A stretch of DNA of 64,000 nucleotides, taken from IMG/VR virus record IMGVR_UViG_3300036766_002288, positions 64,001 to 128,000 of that record. The stretch is one strand, 5' to 3'. A program made the translations under genes and the position numbers. This DNA comes from a virus. Below, piece by piece: positions 5,735 through 57,142 of this stretch. The notes under the pieces are model-generated. The model saw nothing but the letters and a program-made list of their open reading frames with translations. It did no database searches and was not told the DNA's origin. Position 1 is the first letter of the stretch. The number at the start of each line of letters is the position of its first letter.

Positions 5735-5811
5735 GGCGCAGTGATGCAACCTTCGGCAGACATTCTTGACTTAGAATCAAGATTATATGGGTTCGAATCC
5801 CATCTGCGCTA
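5735..5811 (+). tRNA. tRNA with Leu(TAG) anticodon, short variable loop
   Basis: GGCGCAG/CTGCGCT, A73, CTTGA-CTTAGAA-TCAAG, variable loop ATTAT. Confidence 0.85.
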
Positions 5812-8779: not shown

Positions 8780-8861
8780 GGCCAAGTGGTGGAACGGTAT
8801 ACACAGCAGACTTAAAATCTGCCGCCCGTTGGGCTTGCGGGTTCAACTCCCGCCTTGGCCA
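8780..8861 (+). tRNA. tRNA-Leu(TAA), class II
   Basis: GGCCAAG/CTTGGCC, GCAGA-CTTAAAA-TCTGC. Confidence 0.95.
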
Positions 8862-9003
8862 CTATATGTCTTTCATAATAAATTTAACCTTTCTGCCAGT
8901 ATCAATATTTGCATACTTACTATTCCAAAAATGGTATAAACCAATTACAATTCCAGGCATACTATATCATTACATTGAAACTGGTAAATGGGGAAACTAG
9001 CCA

Positions 9004-9962: not shown

Positions 9963-12900
9963 TACCTTTTTAATATAAATGCCATTCGTTGCTAGCTCAA
10001 AAGTTAAATACTCAATATATTCTTTAGCTGATTTTAGATTCCAACCCAATGCTTCTCTAGCTAGTTTTATTGCTTGAATCTTATCTCCCTGTTCTATTTT
10101 GCTCTCCATGTCCATTATTGTTTTTTTGTCTAAAAACGGCTTGCCAGGCATATCATGGTAGTGCTGAACCATTATTTCATGTGCTTTTTCTTGAGATAAA
10201 GGAGAAATGGCATAAATTGTTTTAGCATCAAAATATTTTTGTATTGCTAATTCTTTTAAATAGGTTTTTTTGATATCAAACAATTGATTTGGACTATAAT
10301 TAGCACCTAATGCGGCGTTGACCTTAGTTAAAATATCTTCAATTGGATAACTAGGGTTGTAATATTTAGTAGAAATAATTGCCCTCGCTACTTTCAAATC
10401 CATTGGGAAAAGGAATGCCTTCAATGGATTAAAGCTGTTTTTCAAAGAATCAATAATTTTAGCACCTGTATCTATGGGAGCAGGAGCAGTTGCTAGTTCC
10501 ATATCATCTGCTTCGATAGCATAACTACCGCCACTAGGAAACTTAACACTATAACCATGTTCAAAATCTGATTGTGGAATTTTGTAAACAATTGTTCCAA
10601 CCATACCTTTGTGATAACCATTTATGATCTTAACTGGATCGCCATTTTTGAATTCTTTTTTAGGTTTTGAAGACAACTCAATATTCACCACCTTAATAGG
10701 TGCCTCGCCACCATCATCAAACTTAATATGCACCATGTTATCTTTGTAAGCGCCTGTATAAGTTTTAGTTATATGACCAGTCAGACCTGCATACATTCCA
10801 TCTTTGACTTTTACAAAGTCTCCGACTTTAAAATCCTTTTTAGACCCCGCCGCCACTGGTGCTACTAATTGCAGATTGCCTGCATGTACCAAATATTCAT
10901 ATCCAGCACCGCCAGACTTTATTTTATAAAGATTATCACCTACAATTTTCTCTTTAACGACGCCAGTTATTCCATTATGTTCACCGCCAGTAACTTTAAC
11001 GGTTGCCCCAATTTCAAACGTTTTTGACTGACCCTTCTTGCCTGTTATTTCGAACTGATTTGGTGCTAAAATTTGATCTTGTTTGCCACCGAAGGCAATG
11101 TCTAAAGCAATAGTATAATTTGTTCCGTGGTTCACCTTAACGGTGCCTGTAAAACCTGCAAAACTACCATCTATTACCTTAACAATGTCCCCCACTTCTG
11201 GGGTGGGCGATTTATCTAATTCGATATCATTTTTATAGAAAAGATACGGGGAATCGGATGACCCTAATGTAACCATATAATTCCCATTTTCAGTCTTGTG
11301 CTTAAATTTACCTTTTTTGCCTGTGTGCAAACCATTTTTAACTTTAATAGGATCGCCTGCCTTAAAATCTTCTTTTTCCTTAACAGAATCATCCTTCTTC
11401 AAATCCCCCTGAGAGAAATACAAATTTTGCTTTTTACTATCAAGGGGACTTTCTACGGCGACAATCCACACACCTTCAGTTGAAGTTGAGGTTACAATCT
11501 CACCTTTCTTGCCCTTGTAATCACCATTAGTTATGATTACAGGGTCGCCTACTTTATATGATGGTCTTGTTTTTTCATCCTTTTGCAAATCGTAGTTTGA
11601 ATAGGGAATTAGGTTTACAAGACCAAGATCGACTTGATAGGGATATGGGTCTTCGGCGGCTTTTATATTTTTGATAAAACCTTTCATGCCTTTATGACTT
11701 CCATATTTGATAGTAACATGGTCGCCTACTTTAAGGCCCAGAAGCGACTTGCCACCGCTAGCGGAATCGTCTTTCTTGAAGTAATCTGAGGAATACCATT
11801 GTTCATCGGCTTCCCCACCATGCGGCATCGTTACAAGAACACTCCATGAATGCCCATTATAACTTTTGAGAACACCTTTTGAGCCGTTATAAGTGCCATG
11901 AGTGATGATTACATGGTCCCCTACCTTATTCCCTTTTTCGTCTGGGAAGCTGCTGGCTTTCTTTTCAACAACTTCAAATCTATGTCTCTTAAAAGCCTTT
12001 GTAGGCTTATCTGCGAACTCGACGTTGAAATAAGGAAAATCGTATTTGTAAATCTTATCTATGACGGTTCCAGTTTGGCCAACATATCCACTAGAACCAC
12101 CTATAATCTTAACCTTGTCACCAATATCTACATCAGAAGGATGTGGGGGCTGATTAATTGGGGTTCCTGTGTATGTCGGCTGTGGAACAGGTTTACCCTT
12201 ATTAACCTTGGCCCAATATTCTTGATTAACTTGTCCCATAGAGTATGGGGCTGGTCCATAATTGCCAGTTACAGGGCTTGATACTGATTGATTTATAATA
12301 TGTTGACTAGCATATTGTTCTGGGGTAATATCTTTAGGCTTACTTTCCCAATAAGTATCATTAGGATAGTTTTTTTCATGTTCAGCTTTCTTTTTCTCAT
12401 ATTGAGATTGCTGCATCTGATTATATATCTCTGCCTTTTTCTTTAGAATTTCAGGCCAATCTTTCTCAAAGTCCAAAAAAGTTTTGCCTGTCTTGAGCTT
12501 AATACCAATTTTGGCCACTTCCCGCATTGAAGGACTAATATGCTCAAACATTTCGTGGGGAGAAACTAGATCACGTTTATGGTCAAGTGATTTCTGAATC
12601 CAATCATACTTATTATCTTTCCTATAACTTTTTAATTTAGTGAATACACTACCAGTATTATGTTGTAAGTCGTAAACATGGTCAATGTAGGCGATTATCT
12701 TATTTGGCGTTTCGGCATCATTTAGGTGTGTCCAACCATCAGCAATACCTCCCCAGGCTTTGCCACCATATGAACTACCCCATTTTGCATTATAAAATAG
12801 CCAACTGGCTAGCTTTGCCCATTCTTCATCTGTTCCACCTGCATGTTTCAGAGCTTTGTATGAAGTGGTATAACCATCATCACTGTTTTTAGCTGTAGTC

Positions 12901-14379: not shown

Positions 14380-14910
14380 ATGAAATACACCAAGGAACTA
14401 CTTGAGGCCATAGTAAAAGAAAGCTTATCAGTAGCCCAAGTTATAAAGAAATTAGGACTAAAACAAGCTGGTGGTACGCATCATTACATTTCAAAAAAGC
14501 TTAAGTGCTTTGAAATTAATGTTGAGCATTTTACTGGACGCGCAAGTAACCACGGAGACATGCATAAAGGTGGCCCAGCTAAAAGAACGTGGCAAGAAAT
14601 ACTAGTTTTAAGAGAAGATGGTAAAAGACAAAGAGCATTTGTATTAAGACGTGCATTGATTGAATCTGGAAGCAATTACGAATGCAGTATATGTAATATT
14701 AAAGAATGGTTTGGCAAGACAATAATTCTAGAAGTAGACCATCTAAATGGCGATTATTGTGATGACAGAAAAGAAAATATAAGATTTATGTGCCCGAATT
14801 GTCATAGTCAATCACCTAAATATTGTGGCAGTAAGGGTTACACAACTATAACTAGCACTGCCAAATCGCAGAAAGAAAGAAGGAAGAGAGTACAGTTGGC
14901 CAAGTGGTGA
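14380..14910 (+). CDS. HNH homing endonuclease (paralog of 7267-7749); stop lies inside the next tRNA
   Basis: YTKELLEAIV..S.S..QVIKKLGL; CSIC..W....LEVDHLNGD..D....N.RF.CPNCHSQ. Confidence 0.9.
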   Translation: MKYTKELLEAIVKESLSVAQVIKKLGLKQAGGTHHYISKKLKCFEINVEHFTGRASNHGDMHKGGPAKRTWQEILVLREDGKRQRAFVLRRALIESGSNYECSICNIKEWFGKTIILEVDHLNGDYCDDRKENIRFMCPNCHSQSPKYCGSKGYTTITSTAKSQKERRKRVQLAKW

Positions 14911-15001
14911 AATGGCATACACGCAGGTCTTATTGGTTAAACAACCAGCAATAGAAGCCTGTGCCCGTAAGGGCGTGCGGGTTCAAGTCCCGCCTTGGCC
15001 A
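14898..15001 (+). tRNA. Class II tRNA-Leu (probably TAG) with 21-nt insertion in the anticodon loop
   Basis: GGCCAAG/CTTGGCC, CAGGT/GCCTG stem enclosing a 28-nt loop CTTATTGGTTAAACAACCAGCAATAGAA. Confidence 0.8.
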
Positions 15002-15005
15002 CTTT

Positions 15006-15341
15006 ATGAGTCGATACGGATTTGATTTAGATGGAACTCTTGATGTTCCTTCCATAGCACAACTCGCCAATGATTTATATGACGCAGGACACGAAATATA
15101 CATAGTCACAGGTGGGTTTGGCGATCATGGAGAATGGACAATTTCTGAGCGCGAAAAGAAATTAGCCAGACTTGGTGTTAAATACACAGAAATCATTCGT
15201 TGTTTAAAACCCTCTTTTGAAGAAATTGGTAAAGAGAAAGGTCGTATTTGCAAAGAAAGAAAAATTTCTTTGTTATTTGACGACTCAGAAACTTATATCC
15301 AGCAATCTAAAGGGGCGGTCCAATGTCTGAAAGTGATCTAA
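15006..15341 (+). CDS. HAD-superfamily small hydrolase
   Basis: GFDLDGTL, IVTGG, KG..C......LFDDS. Confidence 0.7.
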   Translation: MSRYGFDLDGTLDVPSIAQLANDLYDAGHEIYIVTGGFGDHGEWTISEREKKLARLGVKYTEIIRCLKPSFEEIGKEKGRICKERKISLLFDDSETYIQQSKGAVQCLKVI

Positions 15342-15553
15342 AACAACTTATTCTTGAAAAAGGCGGCGTAGCTGCCATTAAACATTACCGTGAAATCAAT
15401 AAATGCAATTTAAAAGAAGCAGTCCAAGCAATAGATTCACTTGGCCCATTGCCACGTATCTTTAAATCAACTACTCCATGTCCAGATTGTGGCAAATTGC
15501 TTAGAACAGATTTAGCAAAACAATGTTTTGAATGTGGAAAGGATTGGCATTAA
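15323..15553 (+). CDS. L7/L12-CTD-like motif + Zn ribbon protein
   Basis: AAIKHYREINKCNLKEAVQAID; CPDCG..LRT..AKQCFECG. Confidence 0.6.
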   Translation: MSESDLKQLILEKGGVAAIKHYREINKCNLKEAVQAIDSLGPLPRIFKSTTPCPDCGKLLRTDLAKQCFECGKDWH

Positions 15554-15874
15554 ATGGAACTTCATGGTTCAGATTTAGTTTTTGAGAATGTGAAAGTACC
15601 AATTTCAGAAGATTTGGTTATACCTATAATCAAAACTCACTGGCCTGAGTTGGTCTACGAAGCAATGATGGAAAATGGTGATCTGCACTTGTTCATGCAC
15701 CCAAATCAACACGCTGAAGAATCTTGGGACGATGAAGGTTGGTCTGAAGAAAATGACATAACTTTGATTTACATGATTTGGGATGAATCGAAGGCTGAAC
15801 TGACTTTTGTGATTGACGATGAGAAGAAAAACAAGTATATCGTAGATGACATACAGAAAGGTCTTGGGTTCTAA
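15554..15874 (+). CDS. Acidic hypothetical protein
   Basis: ORF abutting upstream stop. Confidence 0.6.
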   Translation: MELHGSDLVFENVKVPISEDLVIPIIKTHWPELVYEAMMENGDLHLFMHPNQHAEESWDDEGWSEENDITLIYMIWDESKAELTFVIDDEKKNKYIVDDIQKGLGF

Positions 15875-15877
15875 ATC

Positions 15878-16315
15878 ATGCGATGGCTCTTACTTGCTTT
15901 ACTCTGCGTAGGTTGTGCAGAACTACCTTCTGCCAAAGAAAAAGAAGAAGAATTGCAAATACGTAAAAAAAGACACGATGCTGAGTGTGAGGAATGGCGG
16001 ACGAGAATTTTTGATGTAGTTAAGGTTTCGACGGAAGAAGATAAAAAATACACTGAGTCTATGCTGCATTGGTTGAATACTAATCTAGATGATCCTGATA
16101 TTGTTCAGTGGATTAGTAAGGAATACTCCAGATGCAAAAAGTATGGTACGTCAAAAACTGAAATTCTTGTAAAGATTAGGGTAATTGATAGTCAAGGGAT
16201 CAAAAAGATTCACGAGTATTATTTCATATTCGACTTTGACAAAATCCAAAATGCCTACCCCAGATATACTCACCCAAGAAAAATTACCATTATACCACCA
16301 CCCTACTTAGGTTAA
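15878..16315 (+). CDS. Putative lipoprotein
   Basis: MRWLLLALLCVGC lipobox. Confidence 0.65.
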   Translation: MRWLLLALLCVGCAELPSAKEKEEELQIRKKRHDAECEEWRTRIFDVVKVSTEEDKKYTESMLHWLNTNLDDPDIVQWISKEYSRCKKYGTSKTEILVKIRVIDSQGIKKIHEYYFIFDFDKIQNAYPRYTHPRKITIIPPPYLG

Positions 16316-16872
16316 CATGGTTGACTACGAAGGATTTCACCTTAATCAGGCAAGTGCTTTTCTCCAGTTTATCCGCACTGGCGAGAAGTTTGGGTATAGT
16401 AAATGTTGTGTATTTCAATTTGCATCTGACTCAATATCCGATAAATTGCCGTTTAAACTACGTGGTCTCATAAAAAGAGAAGATGGGAAAATCTACGTTC
16501 CATGTGACTCCTGTACAGGGTTAAGATTATGAAAGATGCTGTAACCATCTACTATTGTGGTCAAGGTTGTATCTATCGGTGTCCAGAGTGCCATAAGGCG
16601 GATAGATTGCCCTATGACAGGCCACCTGCTACAAAAACATGTCGTTTTTGTGAAAAAGAATTTGAACTCATACAAGTAAGTTCAATGAACGATGAATTGT
16701 ATGGAGTCATTCAAGAAATTAATGCTCCTGATGCTTATTGGGAAGATTAATATGTTTTGCTGGCTATTTGGACATACAATATACGTTGAAGATATGGGCG
16801 GCACTCTTATAGAATGCTGCGAGTGTTGTAATTGGGTTGGCAGATATGTAAATTACGATATAGAGGTTAAAC

Positions 16873-17361
16873 ATGAACGAGACCCTGATAAGGAAAGAAA
16901 AACTTCCGAAGGGACTTAGCTATCCTTTACAGACACAGGATATTGTTAATGGATTACATACTGAGTCCTTGGCCATTTTTTACCGTTATGATTGTAGTAA
17001 CCCAGGAAAAATGAACAAATGGACTGTAATAGATTTATTTGACTTACATTGTTATCCTGATAAAACTAGGACTCTCGTAGGTAATAATTTTTCTATAGGT
17101 ATCACTTCAATCGAATCTAAGTTAAGGAAAAAATTTAGAGAAATACTGTGTAAGGAAGTGTTGCCACTTGCAAAGACATGGCAGGAATTGAACAACAAGG
17201 GAAAAAATTTATCTGTTCATTATCGAGTATTTCAGGATGACTATCTAGGTTATGGCGGCATATATATGGAAGAAAACCGATATGGGCCTAAAAAGAAAAT
17301 CTTATATCGGAATGATAGCTTTAACATAGATGAAGATTTAAAGGTGATTTATGAAAAATAA
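16873..17361 (+). CDS. Hypothetical protein
   Basis: 162-aa ORF with GAGG SD. Confidence 0.6.
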   Translation: MNETLIRKEKLPKGLSYPLQTQDIVNGLHTESLAIFYRYDCSNPGKMNKWTVIDLFDLHCYPDKTRTLVGNNFSIGITSIESKLRKKFREILCKEVLPLAKTWQELNNKGKNLSVHYRVFQDDYLGYGGIYMEENRYGPKKKILYRNDSFNIDEDLKVIYEK

Positions 17362-17369
17362 CAAACTCC

Positions 17370-17708
17370 GTGGGTGCGAGAAGCATAAGTTTTTCTCACA
17401 CTACGGAGGTTTCTATGAAAAGGTGGCACGAAGAGTATAATGTCTTTCATCGTCAGTGGAAGATACATCGCAAGTCTCACGTTGAGTCTAATAAGGACTC
17501 AAGTAGAAATCGTATTGGCAAAGACCCATACGAAGTCGATTGTAGTTGCGATGAGCAGGTAGGTCGTTTCAGGAAAATGGATGCTTGGGATTGTGGCAAT
17601 CCACACTGTCAGGTGTGCCATTACAACAAATATCCTAAACGGGAATTGACAAATGGTGAAGTAAAGTCTAACATCTCTTTCAAGGAACAGTTGAAGGAAA
17701 GAGATTAG
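17370..17708 (+). CDS. Cys/His-rich hypothetical protein
   Basis: CGNPHCQVCH motif; true start probably the ATG after GGAGG. Confidence 0.55.
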   Translation: MGARSISFSHTTEVSMKRWHEEYNVFHRQWKIHRKSHVESNKDSSRNRIGKDPYEVDCSCDEQVGRFRKMDAWDCGNPHCQVCHYNKYPKRELTNGEVKSNISFKEQLKERD

Positions 17709-17713
17709 TTAGT

Positions 17714-17837
17714 GGCCGAATAGTCTAACGGTATGGCGGTAGAATTACATTACGTGGCTTTGGCTGAAAATGCCGATATTATAGTTTCCACATAATCCCT
17801 AATCTACAGATGGCGGGTTCAATTCCCTCTTCGGCCA
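17714..17837 (+). tRNA. tRNA (probably Val TAC) with 52-nt structured insertion in the anticodon loop
   Basis: GGCCGAA/TTCGGCC, A73, D-arm GTCTAACGGTATGGC, GTAGA/TCTAC stem enclosing 59 nt, T-loop TTCAATT. Confidence 0.75.
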
Positions 17838-18237
17838 ATTAGGAGAATTTATGACCCTTGAATACTTGCTATTTAGATTCTGTATGGCAACAGCCATATC
17901 TACAATATTCGTATTAACTTGTCTAATGGATAAGTTTCATGGTCCAGTGAGTGTAATTATTTTTACCTTGATAACCATAATGATGATTGTCAAGGCAGGA
18001 TTAGCTTATAATGACTTTCAAAGAAGAACTGACGTATAAAATAGAAGTATACCTTAAAGGTTGGATTACTATTAGGGAATTGAACGCTTGGCTTGCTCCA
18101 ACTGGCTGGGATATCCATTTGTGGGGCACGCCCGAGGAACAAGAGATGTGTTATTCCACTTCTCTATACATATGGGAATACAAATATTGGCCCATAAAAG
18201 AGTTTAGGGAGAAGTTAGCTAAGATAATTAACAAAAA

Positions 18238-45794: not shown

Positions 45795-46025
45795 ATGGCT
45801 CAAGCTTTTATAGATCATTTCGAGGTAGAAACCCTTGGTGTTACGGCAAACTTAAAAGCGGCTAATATGGCCCATATTGTCATGGAAGTTTTAGGCTATT
45901 TTAAGTTCGGTACTATAGATATCCAACTTATAGTCACAGAAGTTCTAGGCAAAACACCTAATCAAAGCCTGACTTTTATAGACCATTTTACGGCAGAAAC
46001 GATTGGGCAGTGGGCAGGCTTTTAG
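45795..46025 (+). CDS. Small hypothetical protein
   Basis: AGGAG SD; ETLG/EVLG repeat. Confidence 0.55.
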   Translation: MAQAFIDHFEVETLGVTANLKAANMAHIVMEVLGYFKFGTIDIQLIVTEVLGKTPNQSLTFIDHFTAETIGQWAGF

Positions 46026-46083
46026 AAAGCATTTTCATTACCAATTATTTCATAAAACTTACTATATAATTATAGGAGGCTTT

Positions 46084-47154
46084 ATGAAGTTTAAAGAATT
46101 AAATATAGAAGAGTTCAAGACATATTACGTTGCCAATCAAAGCAAAGAGGTTGCTATCAAGTATGGGATTGCTCCTTCTACAGTAGCGGGGTGGGCAAGA
46201 AAATTAGACTTGCCAAGAAAATCCTTTACTTATCTAAATGAAAATATTAAATTTACCGACCGCCAATTAGATGTATTGACTGGTTCGTTATTAGGCGATG
46301 GTTCGCTTAATAAAATTAAACCTAACACTAATTGTCAATCACATTATGAAGAGGGACACAGCGAAGATCAATTAGGTTGGCTGACTTGGAAACATGATAT
46401 GTTATCACCTTTATCTAATGACATATTTTATAAAAAACGTAAAGGTTTAATAAATTTACCGAATGGCAAAATATTATCTGATCCTAAGAGAAGCCATAAT
46501 AGCTATGGCTTCAACACAATTAAACACCCGACTCTAACAGAGATGGAAAGGCGGTGGTATAAGAGAAATGAAAATGGTAAGTATGTTTACAAAATATCCA
46601 AAAGTAAAAAATATAGAATAAAAATAGTGCCAGAAATTGAGCTAACACCATTTATTTTGTCTGTATGGTATATTGATGATGGCTCAAAAGATGTTAGGAC
46701 TAAAAGATGTAAACTATCAACGCAGGGATTTACTAAAACAGCAGTGGAATCACTAGTGACTAAAATAAAAAAATTAGGAATTCATGATTGCTATATTGGA
46801 AAACATACTGGATATGTGATATACATTGGAACTTACTCATATTTTGATTTCATAAACATGGTCAAGAACCAATTGCCAGACTTACCACAAGATGTTCAAT
46901 ACAAAATTGATTTATCTGGATACAATCCAGCTACCAAGTGGAGCGATAACAAAACAGGCATACCTTTTTTCAGACTTGAAAAAGGAAAATATTGTGGAAC
47001 GGTTATGATAAATTATAAATCAATTTATCTAGGGTCTTATGATTTTAAAACAGCACAAAAGGTTTCAAAAGAAGTAGAATACTTAGTTAGGCATAAATGT
47101 AAAGAACCAGATAAGTATATCGAAATTAAAAACAAATATACCAACTCACGTTGA
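46084..47154 (+). CDS. LAGLIDADG homing endonuclease with C-terminal AP2-like domain
   Basis: LTGSLLGDGSL and LSVWYIDDGS; LSTQGFT; IYLGSY. Confidence 0.85.
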   Translation: MKFKELNIEEFKTYYVANQSKEVAIKYGIAPSTVAGWARKLDLPRKSFTYLNENIKFTDRQLDVLTGSLLGDGSLNKIKPNTNCQSHYEEGHSEDQLGWLTWKHDMLSPLSNDIFYKKRKGLINLPNGKILSDPKRSHNSYGFNTIKHPTLTEMERRWYKRNENGKYVYKISKSKKYRIKIVPEIELTPFILSVWYIDDGSKDVRTKRCKLSTQGFTKTAVESLVTKIKKLGIHDCYIGKHTGYVIYIGTYSYFDFINMVKNQLPDLPQDVQYKIDLSGYNPATKWSDNKTGIPFFRLEKGKYCGTVMINYKSIYLGSYDFKTAQKVSKEVEYLVRHKCKEPDKYIEIKNKYTNSR

Positions 47155-54003: not shown

Positions 54004-54732
54004 TTATAATTCCCGTAAAAATAAATCTCTGAAACAGTTTTCCACCTCTACAGTTATATTAGCACAAAAATGTGAAATGTCAATTTCCTTCATGTCACAG
54101 TGGCGTTTTACCCACGGAGATAACGCAGCATAGAAACCAGAAACTTTACCAACAGAAATCCAGCACCCTATATCTTTTGCCATTTCTTTAAATTGCTCCT
54201 CATCTTTAATTTTAGAATCCAGGAGTTTTTTAGTTTGTTTCAACTCATTTTGGATTGTTAGAAAATCAACTTTGTCCAGACCCACTTCTTTCAGGGTCTT
54301 CACTTTTTCAATATTGTCGAATTTCTTTTTCCAAATTTTCCACCGAACCCAAGCCTTGTCTCCAATTAAGCACCAAGTAGATATCAATGGATGGGTGTTA
54401 CCAATTTCCACAGCTTTTAACATTTGAAGTTGAGCCATGACATACAATTTATAATCTTTAGGGTCGATTAATCCCCTTGTTTCCTTCTGCAATTTGTAGC
54501 AATATTTAAACAAAGTGCTATTGCGTGGATCACCCTTTTTAGGGTAACTAGTCTTAGTCTTGCAATCAGGGAAAACTTTTTGAGAAGATTCTATCCACAT
54601 GAGTCCAATTTTGTATGCAAGAGCCTGTTCGTCGGTCATACTATATTCAATGATTGGTTCAAGGTTGTAAGCTTCGTCCATAAGAGTCTCCGATGAAAAA
54701 GATTTATATTCCATCAAATCTAGATTTGCCAA
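54004..54732 (-). CDS. Hypothetical protein (replication-region)
   Basis: 242-aa ORF; overlaps the divergent gene start, so the true start is probably downstream. Confidence 0.6.
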   Translation of the reverse strand: MANLDLMEYKSFSSETLMDEAYNLEPIIEYSMTDEQALAYKIGLMWIESSQKVFPDCKTKTSYPKKGDPRNSTLFKYCYKLQKETRGLIDPKDYKLYVMAQLQMLKAVEIGNTHPLISTWCLIGDKAWVRWKIWKKKFDNIEKVKTLKEVGLDKVDFLTIQNELKQTKKLLDSKIKDEEQFKEMAKDIGCWISVGKVSGFYAALSPWVKRHCDMKEIDISHFCANITVEVENCFRDLFLREL

Positions 54733-55868
54733 AAATACTCAAAGACCAATATTCTGATACGGATTTAGACAAATTCCACTATTTTATCCATTTGATCTAT
54801 GAACAACGAATACTATACAAAAATCCAGAAGAATATATCCCACTAAAGGCAGAATATCTGAGAGCAATCATAGTAAGGGATTACAACCGTTATCGCAACA
54901 TCCTAATCGACAAAAACATTATTGACTGTGACGGCAGATATATCAAGGGACAAAAATCTTTAGGTTACAAATTATTACCACCATACTCAGAAGTTAAGCA
55001 TAAGCAAATCATCCTCAAAAATAAACTAATTCTAAAAAACATTGAAAAATGGAAGGCTAAAAGACTTCCTAAAACCAAAGTGCATCAACACTTATATAAA
55101 TTCTTGGATAAGTTAATGATTGATAGTGATGGGGCTTTAGAATCTATTAAGGATTTAAATGTAGTTGAGTATAATTTTTGTGAGTTAGCTATAAACAAGC
55201 TATTGGATAAAGATTTTTTCCTTATTTCTGATGATTACGGTAGAGTTCATACAAATATTACTAGTTTAAAATCATCTCTTAGAAAATTTATCACTTATGA
55301 AGGTAAAGAACTTTACAACGTTGATATTGTCAATTCTCAACCTCTTATTTTGCTTTTAATTCCCTTCCTCTCTAATACCATACGCTGTACATTTTCAGAC
55401 TTTCTTGAAACAGACAAATTAGACATTTTCAAATACAAGGAATTGGTGGAGAAGGGAGAATTATACGAATATTTGATGAACAATTCCAATTTTGATGATT
55501 ATTTGATAGAACAGAACAAAGAATATGACAGAGAGCCGTTTAAAGAGACCTTTTTCAGGGAAGTTTTCTTTGGAAAGAAGGTTAGTGGCTATTTCTGGGA
55601 TTTATTCCCATCTGTGGCAAATATTATAGCTCAAGTCAAAAAAGATGATTACAGAAGTTTGGCTTGGATGATGCAAAGAGCAGAATCAGATTTGATAATA
55701 AACAAGATATGCGGTAGAATCATGGAAGAATATCCAAAATGTTTCATTTCGACAATCCATGACTCCATTCTGACTACCGCAGAGCATGTGGATAAGATAA
55801 AAAGCATTATGTTGGAAGAATTTAAGAAACTAGGGCTATTGCCTTCGATTAGAATAGAACCTGCATGA
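54693..55868 (+). CDS. Family A polymerase-fold protein (minimal)
   Basis: YGRVHT, motif A-like VDIVNSQP, motif B-like REPFK..F..VFFG, Q.AES, motif C-like TIHDSI. Confidence 0.65.
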   Translation: MKKIYIPSNLDLPKILKDQYSDTDLDKFHYFIHLIYEQRILYKNPEEYIPLKAEYLRAIIVRDYNRYRNILIDKNIIDCDGRYIKGQKSLGYKLLPPYSEVKHKQIILKNKLILKNIEKWKAKRLPKTKVHQHLYKFLDKLMIDSDGALESIKDLNVVEYNFCELAINKLLDKDFFLISDDYGRVHTNITSLKSSLRKFITYEGKELYNVDIVNSQPLILLLIPFLSNTIRCTFSDFLETDKLDIFKYKELVEKGELYEYLMNNSNFDDYLIEQNKEYDREPFKETFFREVFFGKKVSGYFWDLFPSVANIIAQVKKDDYRSLAWMMQRAESDLIINKICGRIMEEYPKCFISTIHDSILTTAEHVDKIKSIMLEEFKKLGLLPSIRIEPA

Positions 55869-57142
55869 ATCTTATTCCAATAGCTGTAAAACTTGAGAGT
55901 TTACTACAAGCTGGTGCTTATGTTTTTATAAGCATAGAACCTGCTATCGTAGACTTTACGCGCAATAACATTTCTTTTAAATTCAAAATACTTACTGAAC
56001 TAGGGGACATGACCCTTGAAATGAAGGATGATTTTCTTGAAATCTTAGAGTTTGCCAAAACAGCGATTTTCAATAATAAGGAAATTATGATTATTGGCTG
56101 GGACTTGAAGAATTTGTTTAGTACGGTTTTGTTTAAGACAGGTAGTCAATTTGAAATTGAGAATAAGTTTCTAGATTTGAAGGTTGCGGAACATTTCATA
56201 GGCATTAGAGAGAAGCCACCTACTGACTTTTCCGAGATGAAGGCACGGGTTAAAGTTCTCTTTGCAGATTCATCTTGGCCTAAGTTCAAGCAGATTTACC
56301 AAAAGATTTACTTACCGTTAATTACTGAAGTCATACCTTCCATAGAGTGTGAAGGTATGCTTGATTCCAAAGACCGAAAGATGCTTTATCCTTACTATGA
56401 AATCGAAGGACAGGTGAATGGCAGGCTGTCCTGTAATTTGGCTTATGAAAACTGCATTAACCCACATTCAATGTCTCAAGAACAGAAGGCAATATTATTG
56501 CCAAAAGGTAGGGATTGTTCGTTTTTAAGCTTTGACTTTAATTCAATGGAGGTTTGTACACTTGCTTGGTTGAGTGGGGATGAAGAGTTGAAGGCGATGG
56601 TCAATGGAGATTTTTATAGGTCTTTGTTTAAACTGATTTCTGGCGCGGAGTGTGATACGGATGAGAAAAGAGGATTTTGTAAAAAGATATTCCTGCCTGT
56701 ATTTTATGGAGAATCTGCTAAGGAATTGGCAAAGAACCTTAATTTTAGTGTGGAAACAGCGTATAAAGTAATTGGTAAATTAAAGGCATTATTCCCAAGG
56801 GTATTTTCTTGGGTTGATGAGTATGTTCACGAAAATGAATGTGTGGACTATTATGGGAGAAAAAGAAGATTTTCTTTTGAAGAGAGTTATAAATACAGAA
56901 ATTTCATAATTCAGTCACCTGCTGCTATAGTTTGCCTGGATAGGTTGGTAAGACTGCATCGCAACCTTGGCAGTTATGGTAAGTTGGTGGCTCATATTCA
57001 TGATGGTTACGTAGTAAAAGTCAGTGATGGTTATATAGAAATTGCTAAATCATTATGTCTTGATTCGTTACAATCAGATAGTTCGATATGTCCAGGGCTA
57101 AGTTTGAAGTCTAATTTCAAATTTGGTAAGACTTTAGCTTGA
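55865..57142 (+). CDS. Family A DNA polymerase-like protein with degenerate exonuclease domain
   Basis: GRLS, FDFNSME...A.LSGD..L, R..CK..F.P.FYG, NF.IQS.AA, HIHDG. Confidence 0.8.
   Translation: MNLIPIAVKLESLLQAGAYVFISIEPAIVDFTRNNISFKFKILTELGDMTLEMKDDFLEILEFAKTAIFNNKEIMIIGWDLKNLFSTVLFKTGSQFEIENKFLDLKVAEHFIGIREKPPTDFSEMKARVKVLFADSSWPKFKQIYQKIYLPLITEVIPSIECEGMLDSKDRKMLYPYYEIEGQVNGRLSCNLAYENCINPHSMSQEQKAILLPKGRDCSFLSFDFNSMEVCTLAWLSGDEELKAMVNGDFYRSLFKLISGAECDTDEKRGFCKKIFLPVFYGESAKELAKNLNFSVETAYKVIGKLKALFPRVFSWVDEYVHENECVDYYGRKRRFSFEESYKYRNFIIQSPAAIVCLDRLVRLHRNLGSYGKLVAHIHDGYVVKVSDGYIEIAKSLCLDSLQSDSSICPGLSLKSNFKFGKTLA

Follow-up and report, generated by a model that had tools for sequence, protein, structure and literature searches.

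A conserved two-helix insert directly 5′ of an Arg-type anticodon in a tRNA-like gene of very large phages

Introduction

What is a short structured insert doing in the anticodon loop of a phage tRNA gene, and is it ever removed? The question is raised by an interrupted tRNA-like gene of 124 nt in a 64,000-nt stretch of viral DNA (IMG/VR record IMGVR_UViG_3300036766_002288, positions 64,001 to 128,000; hereafter the window), which lies within a 187-kb record that is estimated to be 37% complete. The host is judged to be bacterial from the RF1/RF2-type release factor of the phage and from its Shine-Dalgarno sites. Introns in bacterial tRNA genes are self-splicing group I introns, or rarely group II introns, and tRNA splicing by proteins is a feature of archaea and eukaryotes; bacteria and their viruses are not known to take out tRNA inserts as small as this one. 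A sequence-only reading had proposed that the gene encodes tRNA-Val(TAC) with a structured 52-nt insertion at or near the canonical intron site between positions 37 and 38. Here, we compared the gene with its relatives, and we find that the insert is a conserved RNA structure that lies on the other side of the anticodon, which is then of the Arg type.

Results

The tRNA model of Rfam (RF00005) matched exactly 17714-17837 on the plus strand, end to end, with 40.5 bits, above the gathering score of 29. The alignment spanned positions 1-71 of the model and carried about 54 extra nt at the anticodon loop. ARAGORN missed the gene with default settings and, when introns were allowed, reported a tRNA with a 52-nt intron and the anticodon TCT. 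The gene starts 5 nt past the stop codon of an upstream open reading frame (ORF), ends 13 nt ahead of the next ATG and does not encode CCA. Its acceptor stem (GGCCGAA/TTCGGCC) is free of mismatches, the D loop reads AACGGTA (G18 G19, U20), and the T loop reads TTCAATT. As the sequence-only reading had it, the anticodon stem strands GTAGA (17739-43) and TCTAC (17803-07) enclose 59 nt (17744-17802) instead of the usual 7, and a 7-nt anticodon loop results only once 52 nt are taken out. Its description of the arms as intact holds for the cloverleaf and is slightly generous in detail, since there is a U.U mismatch in the D stem (13-22) and a C.U mismatch in the T stem (50-64).

Relatives were gathered from the contigs and IMG/VR records that hold homologs of the upstream ORF of 112 aa (93 homologs, many on contigs of 450-670 kb) and by one metagenome signature scan, in which 58 of 59 pattern matches arose by chance, as expected, and were removed by a covariance model. 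Seven distinct versions of the interrupted tRNA were obtained, namely those of the window, L021, G002 (identical in G001 and L023), G004 (identical in G011), L108, L024a and L024b, and the relatives occur on phage contigs of 450-670 kb. L024a follows the same upstream ORF as the window tRNA, and L024b is a paralog 2.2 kb downstream of L024a. This pair flanks one TnpB gene, with other transposon genes between and beside the two copies; the TnpB/OrfB_IS605 and Y1 transposase genes of L024 lie at 10980-12068 (-), 15019-16179 (-) and 16176-16598 (-). When the window helicase was used as the query, three related IMG/VR records were found, the closest two of which hold an ortholog of the interrupted tRNA at 91% identity, compared with 72-79% for the flanking coding DNA; the DNA downstream could not be aligned. 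Exact-pattern scans for the tRNA halves returned nothing from IMG/VR, metagenome or GTDB contigs, and scans with gapped stems and 18-mers returned only G001/G002 and otherwise chance matches in coding DNA. A blastn search of INPHARED gave no match, and no IMG/VR relatives exist for the large gene next to the tRNA.

Comparison of the seven members showed that all four stems of the cloverleaf are maintained by double substitutions. Compensatory changes were found at pairs 3-70 (CG to UA), 5-68 (GC to AU), 7-66 (AU to GC), 12-23 (CG to UA), 28-42 (UA to CG), 29-41 (AU to GC), 31-39 (AU to GC), 49-65 (GC to AU) and 51-63 (GC to UA or AU), and A73 and a canonical T loop are present in every member. 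A decaying pseudogene is thereby ruled out, and 17714-17837 is a real, conserved tRNA-like gene under selection.

The insert follows a common layout in these members. N32 and N33 are followed by 2-3 unpaired nt, a first helix (P1, 8-9 bp), 1-2 nt, a second helix (P2, 5-6 bp) with the loop UGAAAAU, a linker of 9-11 nt with AUAG(U), the return strand of P1, a C, the sequence Y-C-Y-R-N and the anticodon stem (Table 1). The pairings quoted in the sequence-only reading are real, and in the window P1 has 9 positions with one C.A mismatch. When the strands of P1 are kept in register, 33 of 35 pairs are canonical, compared with 10-17 of 35 when they are slid by 1-3 nt; these counts come from structure-guided alignment tables of the members. 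The pair types change at P1 positions 1 (AU/GC), 3 (UA/AU/CG), 5 (UA/GC/AU), 6 (GC/CG/GU) and 7 (UA/GC), and the P2 stem covaries as well (UG/GC/AU and UA/GC/CG). The G.U wobbles in P1 and P2 indicate that the structure matters as RNA, on the tRNA strand. Random variation of the insert without preserved pairing, the outcome that the sequence-only reading had set against itself, did not appear among the relatives. The case for structure rests on this comparison, because the single-sequence fold of the window element is no better than that of shuffled sequences (z = -0.69).

The sequence of the insert is also constrained. In L021 it is identical to that of the window (52/52) while the exons differ at 7 sites, and G002 differs from the window by six insert substitutions, all in P1 or at the junction, so that a 34-nt core (17756-17789) is unchanged. 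The L024a insert measures 30 nt and is without P2 and the UGAAAAU loop, with the tRNA and P1 kept. As judged from these alignments, the insert is conserved at least as strongly as the exons, and it is a conserved structured RNA with two helices and invariant unpaired motifs. Two other structural roles were considered and rejected. A pseudoknot of the AUAG linker with the anticodon or the 5′ flank would have at most 3 bp (<=3 bp) and is inconsistent among members, and an intrinsic terminator formed by P2 and a U-rich tail was flagged in the window clade only, the tail not being U-rich in G004, L108 and L024b.

A palindromic insert without an ORF could also be a small selfish DNA, such as a miniature inverted-repeat transposable element or an IS200/IS605-derived palindrome, that hit a dead tRNA gene, its conservation being only apparent. 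TnpB/IS605 genes between the two interrupted tRNAs of L024 would fit this explanation, as would the presence/absence polymorphism of the Leu-type inserts described below and the sequence TTAC immediately ahead of 17749, a classic IS608 target. However, the compensatory changes keep the cloverleaf and both insert helices over seven diverged lineages, conservation is higher in the insert than in the neighbouring genes, the G.U wobbles point to selection on the RNA strand, and a target-site duplication is absent at the junctions. The insert signature occurred once per record in 5 records, with 0 matches in the reversed control, and the covariance model found only the tRNA copies across about 860 kb of related loci, indicating that the insert is not a multi-copy mobile element. 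We therefore regard selfish DNA as a very improbable explanation.

We then asked where the insert lies relative to the anticodon. By arithmetic, the window gene can be read as CCU, UCU, UAU or UAC, and the arithmetic of the sequence-only reading was correct. Excision of 17750-17801 gives AT-TAC-AA, and other registers give CCT/TCT (Arg) or TAT (Ile). The 37/38 reading, however, gives UAC in only three of the seven members (window, L021 and G002). The 5′ flanks of G004, L108, L024a and L024b (AAAAG, AAAAC, UUAAG and CUAUG) contain no UAC and would yield AAG, AAC or AUG, with a pyrimidine at position 37 in three of the four. The 33/34 reading gives CCU in the window and L021, UCU in G002, G004, L108 and L024a, and UCC in the paralog L024b, that is, an Arg anticodon in 6/7 and Gly(UCC) in one, with a purine at position 37 in 7/7. 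The bacterial tRNA-Arg identity set calls for C35 with U36 (or G36), and CCU or UCU, directly 3′ of the insert, agrees with it in every member except L024b. An Arg anticodon occurs in each of the five lineages with the tRNA immediately behind the 112-aa ORF and in L108, and the change from U to C at position 34 is synonymous, Arg being kept. Shifting the excised segment by one base in the window (17747-17798) gives UCU instead of CCU, which is still Arg. Taken across the members, these alignments place the insert between position 33 and the anticodon, which is of the Arg type in six of them and CCU in the window; Arg, which the sequence-only reading had named as an alternative register, is the coherent one.

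The Val(UAC) assignment implies an archaeal/eukaryal-style intron at 37/38. AUUAC plus a purine in the window, L021 and G002 does make UAC with a purine at 37 available, GTA is a common codon (16.7 per 1000 codons), and inserts in the tRNAs of Lak megaphages have been predicted at 37/38 (Devoto et al. 2019, PMC6784885). Nevertheless, the anticodons would form an incoherent mix (UAC/AAG/AAC/AUG). Folds of five members showed no bulge-helix-bulge (BHB) motif: there is one 3-nt bulge, on the 3′ side only (17797-17799 in the window), with no partner bulge 4 bp away, and the 5′ junction falls within or beside a short helix rather than in a bulge. EndA was not found in the 187-kb record, and the Leu inserts of the same phages sit 5′ of the anticodon. 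We consider Val the least probable of the explanations weighed here. The single GTA codon of the leader peptide, which had been offered in support of Val, cannot discriminate, because the leader also holds one AGA (Arg) codon. In the phage, AGA (16.1 per 1000 codons) and AGG (8.4) are together the commonest Arg codons, no other Arg tRNA was found in the 187-kb record, and its remaining tRNAs are Ser, Leu or Tyr only. The annotation therefore moves from Val to an Arg-type anticodon, which removes the supposed exception that had been used in interpreting the tRNA set and the leader peptide of the phage.

The interrupted tRNA-Leu genes of these phages provide independent support for the position between U33 and N34. 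The sequence-only reading had treated the window's interrupted Leu gene (Table 1) as kin to the one studied here, and this view stands: the insert is 5′ of the anticodon in both, and we regard them as one phenomenon. Conversely to the window's Leu(UAG) gene, whose G002 counterpart is intact, G002 has an interrupted Leu(UAA) gene that is syntenic with the intact window gene at 8780. Both syntenic pairs differ by a homologous hairpin of 21-23 nt between U33 and N34, and in both the anticodon after removal of the insert is that of the intact ortholog. Leu-type hairpin inserts were also seen in further lineages, where the stems covary and the loop is conserved as NRAC. The Leu copies of L032 and L035 regain U33 only with the 5′ junction at 32/33, so that the Leu site is best described as just 5′ of the anticodon, plus or minus one base.

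Further unusual tRNAs were seen in the same phages. A 77-nt tRNA match at 5735-5811 (Rfam 51.5 bits), uncalled by ARAGORN, combines an anticodon stem of 6 bp and the loop CUUAGAA (UAG, Leu) with a variable loop that is short, and the interrupted Leu(UAG) gene is therefore not the sole gene with a UAG anticodon. In the complete relative G005 (533 kb), four tRNA-like genes (L064:4872-4971, L064:6212-6337, L064:14780-14905 and L065:14759-14889) share a module of 35-50 nt, AUUUGUCCUUCGGGAAUG ... GGGAUUACAU, in or near the anticodon arm. The clade thus has a second family of inserts, which is multi-copy. Other over-long tRNAs of G005 lie at L065:5614-5717, L065:7217-7315 and L064:13184-13278.

Table 1. 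Positions of the interrupted tRNA-like gene, its parts and associated features in the window
Feature	Position	Strand	Basis or remark
Interrupted tRNA-like gene, 124 nt	17714-17837	+	Rfam RF00005 40.5 bits; ARAGORN -i; sequence
5′ exon: acceptor 5′ strand, D arm, anticodon stem GTAGA, A32 U33	17714-17745	+	Segmentation and pair tables
52-nt insert, placed between U33 and N34	17746-17797	+	Register across 7 members; Leu interrupted/intact pairs
P1, 5′ strand ATTACGTGG	17749-17757	+	Pairs with 17788-17796; compensatory changes at five positions
P2 hairpin: stem TTGGC/GCCGA (17760-64/17772-76), 7-nt loop TGAAAAT (17765-17771)	17760-17776	+	Loop invariant in 6/6 P2-bearing members
Unpaired linker with ATAGT (17781-17785)	17777-17787	+	AUAG invariant in 7/7
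P1, 3′ strand CCACATAAT	17788-17796	+	An unpaired C (17797) comes next in all members
3′ exon: anticodon CCT (17798-17800), A37 A38, TCTAC, 5-nt variable loop, T arm, acceptor 3′ strand, A73	17798-17837	+	
Class II tRNA-Leu(UAG) with a 21-nt hairpin (~14931-14951) just 5′ of the anticodon	14898-15001	+	Syntenic G002 gene intact
Cys/His-rich ORF, 112 aa	17370-17708	+	Directly ahead of the tRNA in each lineage that has it
Trl1-type 2′,3′-cyclic phosphodiesterase (tRNA_lig_CPD), 207 aa	32163-32786	-	PF08302 27 bits, cut-off 23

Discussion

Given a conserved insert directly 5′ of the anticodon, we infer that it may be excised by proteins and the exons religated to a decoding tRNA. We rate this as the likeliest of the explanations considered and assign it a probability of about 0.45. 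In such a pathway, the gene would be transcribed within a polycistronic message and its ends trimmed as in any tRNA. The conserved hairpin and linker of the insert would serve as the handle for a phage or host endonuclease, possibly one that resembles an anticodon nuclease and cuts beside the wobble base. The two halves, held by the anticodon stem, would then be resealed by phage enzymes, and the product would be a tRNA decoding AGG/AGA.

Genes for candidate resealing enzymes were identified in the phage. An ATP-dependent RNA ligase with a PF09414 and a PHA02142 OB-fold domain is encoded about 50 kb upstream of the tRNA (G000:C1:30903-31901 = L001:1036-2034) and is directly followed by the gene for a Thg1-like tRNA 3′-5′ nucleotidyltransferase (L001:2085-2903); both lie outside the window, and they look like a tRNA repair pair. 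Inside the window, a match to PF08302, a domain of fungal tRNA ligases, marks a Trl1-type cyclic phosphodiesterase (CPD), homologs of which also occur near the same region in L023 and L034. This CPD may heal RNA ends during tRNA repair or splicing, and would act together with the ligase and its Thg1-like neighbour.

Several observations weigh against protein-catalysed excision and a functional tRNA-Arg. The 187-kb record, which represents about 37% of the genome, yielded no match to EndA (PF01974), RtcB, Rnl1, Tpt1 or an AAA_33 kinase, nor any candidate endonuclease. P1 and the 5′ junction are 3 nt apart in four members (window, L021, G002 and L108) but 2 nt apart in the other three (G004, L024a and L024b), and a simple helix-measured cutting rule fails to give a 7-nt loop in every member. 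A20 is the main identity element of bacterial arginyl-tRNA synthetase, and all members have U20 or C20 in its place (D loops AACGGUA, AACGGCA and AGUGGUA), whereas G005, a complete relative, has A20 in its intact Arg tRNAs (GGAA/GGAC). Position 33 is A rather than U in G004 and L108, and G37 is combined with a UCU anticodon in G004, L108 and L024a. The tRNA body is most similar to the Leu tRNAs of the phage itself, and it is at most 65% (<=65%) identical to the Arg, Val and Gly tRNAs that the relatives carry. The missing A20 and the Leu-like body mean that the anticodon does not settle which amino acid is charged. In addition, no insert-free allele of the interrupted Arg-type tRNA was found among the seven lineages, and the invariant loop and linker suggest a functional RNA domain rather than a passive, protein-spliced intron. 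The exons resemble the class II tRNA-Leu(UAA) at 8780-8862 in acceptor stem, D loop and T arm, although their variable loop is of 5 nt, and the interrupted tRNA may derive from a Leu tRNA.

The same features (no A20, A33, UCU with G37, the Leu-like body, invariant motifs and no insert-free allele) keep open a serious rival, in which the insert is never removed and the 124-nt transcript is a composite tRNA-like RNA with the P1-P2 domain in place of the anticodon loop and a non-decoding role. The acceptor, D and T arms would then provide tRNA-type processing, stability or protein binding, and the RNA could act as a decoy or inhibitor of host anticodon nucleases or tRNA-binding defence proteins, or as a regulator. 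The tRNA and its insert evolved as a unit, as such an RNA would, the element is single-copy per genome, and the UGAAAAU loop and AUAG linker are as constant as a binding site or an active domain. On the other hand, an Arg anticodon in six members, the synonymous change from U34 to C34 and a purine at 37 in all seven are what a used anticodon loop would show. The Leu inserts sit in ordinary Leu tRNA genes with clearly decoding intact orthologs, and L024a, which keeps the tRNA and P1 without P2, is hard to square with P2 as a functional domain. We consider a retained insert less likely than excision, though it deserves serious attention, and estimate that excision by one route or another, a ribozyme included, is slightly favoured over even odds.

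The ribozyme route would make the insert a new, very small self-cleaving or self-splicing RNA with UGAAAAU and AUAG as its core, for which the ligase would be optional. Small ribozymes are usually recognised by invariant unpaired nucleotides between helices that covary, and hammerhead and pistol ribozymes are similar to the insert in size. A cmscan search of 14700-18000 at E <= 1, however, returned only two tRNA matches, with no hammerhead, twister, pistol, hatchet or hepatitis delta virus-like ribozyme; no conserved pseudoknot or three-way junction was found; L024a is maintained without P2 and its loop; and the final base of the insert is C, not the G of group I introns. Self-removal is thus improbable in our estimation.

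Two nuclease routes were rejected. Excision of a mini-tRNA by RNase P and RNase Z does not fit, as P2 is on the wrong strand side to mimic an acceptor/T arm and cuts at the ends of P1 leave a loop of 9-10 nt. Staggered cuts of the RNase III type do not fit either, as they would leave 3′ overhangs and the overhangs in the 33/34 register are 5′. The Cys/His-rich ORF ahead of the tRNA was considered as a possible tRNA processing factor. Its family has invariant W, H, CxC, GRFRK, DCG and CxxCH motifs, and nearly all of the 93 members are on megaphage contigs, usually near tRNA arrays, but the ORF has no annotation in Pfam or Atlas and its AlphaFold model is poor (predicted local distance difference test 66, predicted template modelling score 0.48). 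In the distant relative L027, RtcB lies close to a member of the same ORF family.

Group I introns of bacteria and phages, as in tRNA-Leu(UAA), tRNA-fMet, tRNA-Ile and tRNA-Arg(CCU), also interrupt the anticodon loop after a U, and the tRNA-Arg(CCU) gene of Agrobacterium carries one. Such introns measure some 200 nt or more, contain a P3-P9 core and end in G, whereas the insert has 52 nt, two helices, no P3-P9 core, a terminal C and no Rfam match at E <= 1; a group I intron was therefore rejected. Archaeal/eukaryal BHB introns are likewise short introns of the anticodon loop whose exons are held by the anticodon stem, and the healing and sealing enzymes encoded by the phage (CPD and ATP-dependent ligase) recall the Trl1 pathway. 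Unlike BHB introns, the insert is not at 37/38, is without two 3-nt bulges 4 bp apart and has strongly conserved motifs, which are atypical for BHB introns; EndA was not found in the 187-kb record, about 37% of the genome.

In the T4 system, PrrC cuts the bond 5′ of the wobble base in tRNA-Lys and Rnl1 reseals it. The insert junction is at or beside the same bond, and the phage also has RNA repair enzymes. In contrast to PrrC/Pnkp/Rnl1, where a single break in an uninterrupted tRNA is mended and nothing is excised, an insert would have to be removed here, the ligase is of the PF09414 type and not Rnl1, and no Pnkp-type kinase was found in the 187-kb record.

The closest precedent is still that of the Lak megaphages, whose tRNA introns were called "enigmatic" and whose removal was left unexplained; these inserts are of 79-114 nt, were predicted to lie after the anticodon at 37/38, and consist of a small hairpin and an acceptor/T-arm minihelix with a GGTTCGAATCC-type T arm (PMC6784885). 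No later paper on the removal of Lak tRNA inserts was found in the literature searched. Both families are small, ORF-less anticodon-loop inserts in tRNAs of very large phages, conserved between relatives and without an Rfam match, and presence/absence polymorphism is seen here too, for the Leu-type inserts only. However, the insert described here has 52 nt, sits 5′ of the anticodon, has its own invariant motifs (UGAAAAU and AUAG) and lacks an insert-free allele among the seven lineages. Unlike the Lak minihelix, P2 stands 1-2 nt from the 5′ strand of P1 and 9-11 nt from the 3′ strand, the mirror of tRNA topology. The insert family thus stands apart from that of the Lak phages by its position and architecture and by being apparently obligate.

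What the family adds is seven diverged members, a two-helix fold backed by covariation, invariant motifs and an insertion point just 5′ of the anticodon, and the companion Leu tRNAs offer filled and empty sites alike. Whether the insert is removed is directly testable with the 124-nt transcript and a few candidate enzymes. Excision would mean that the bacterial domain has a further, new route of RNA processing and that phages have a new means to gate their own tRNAs, and retention would mean a new class of tRNA-shaped phage RNA. As a tentative and more far-reaching proposal, which we think less likely than not, infected bacteria may have a tRNA splicing path free of group I introns, in which a structured intron 5′ of the wobble base is cut by a protein, possibly of the anticodon-nuclease type, and phage enzymes reseal the exons, so that the supply of tRNA-Arg(AGR) and tRNA-Leu would be conditional on the state of infection.

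Other features of the window

Further features lie at 46003-47154 (+) and 54693-57142 (+), among them a LAGLIDADG homing-endonuclease-like ORF. A DNA polymerase match there covers only part of an ORF of 425 aa, which is preceded by an ORF of 391 aa without a family match, and the window's DNA polymerase gene may accordingly be split or interrupted by an intron.

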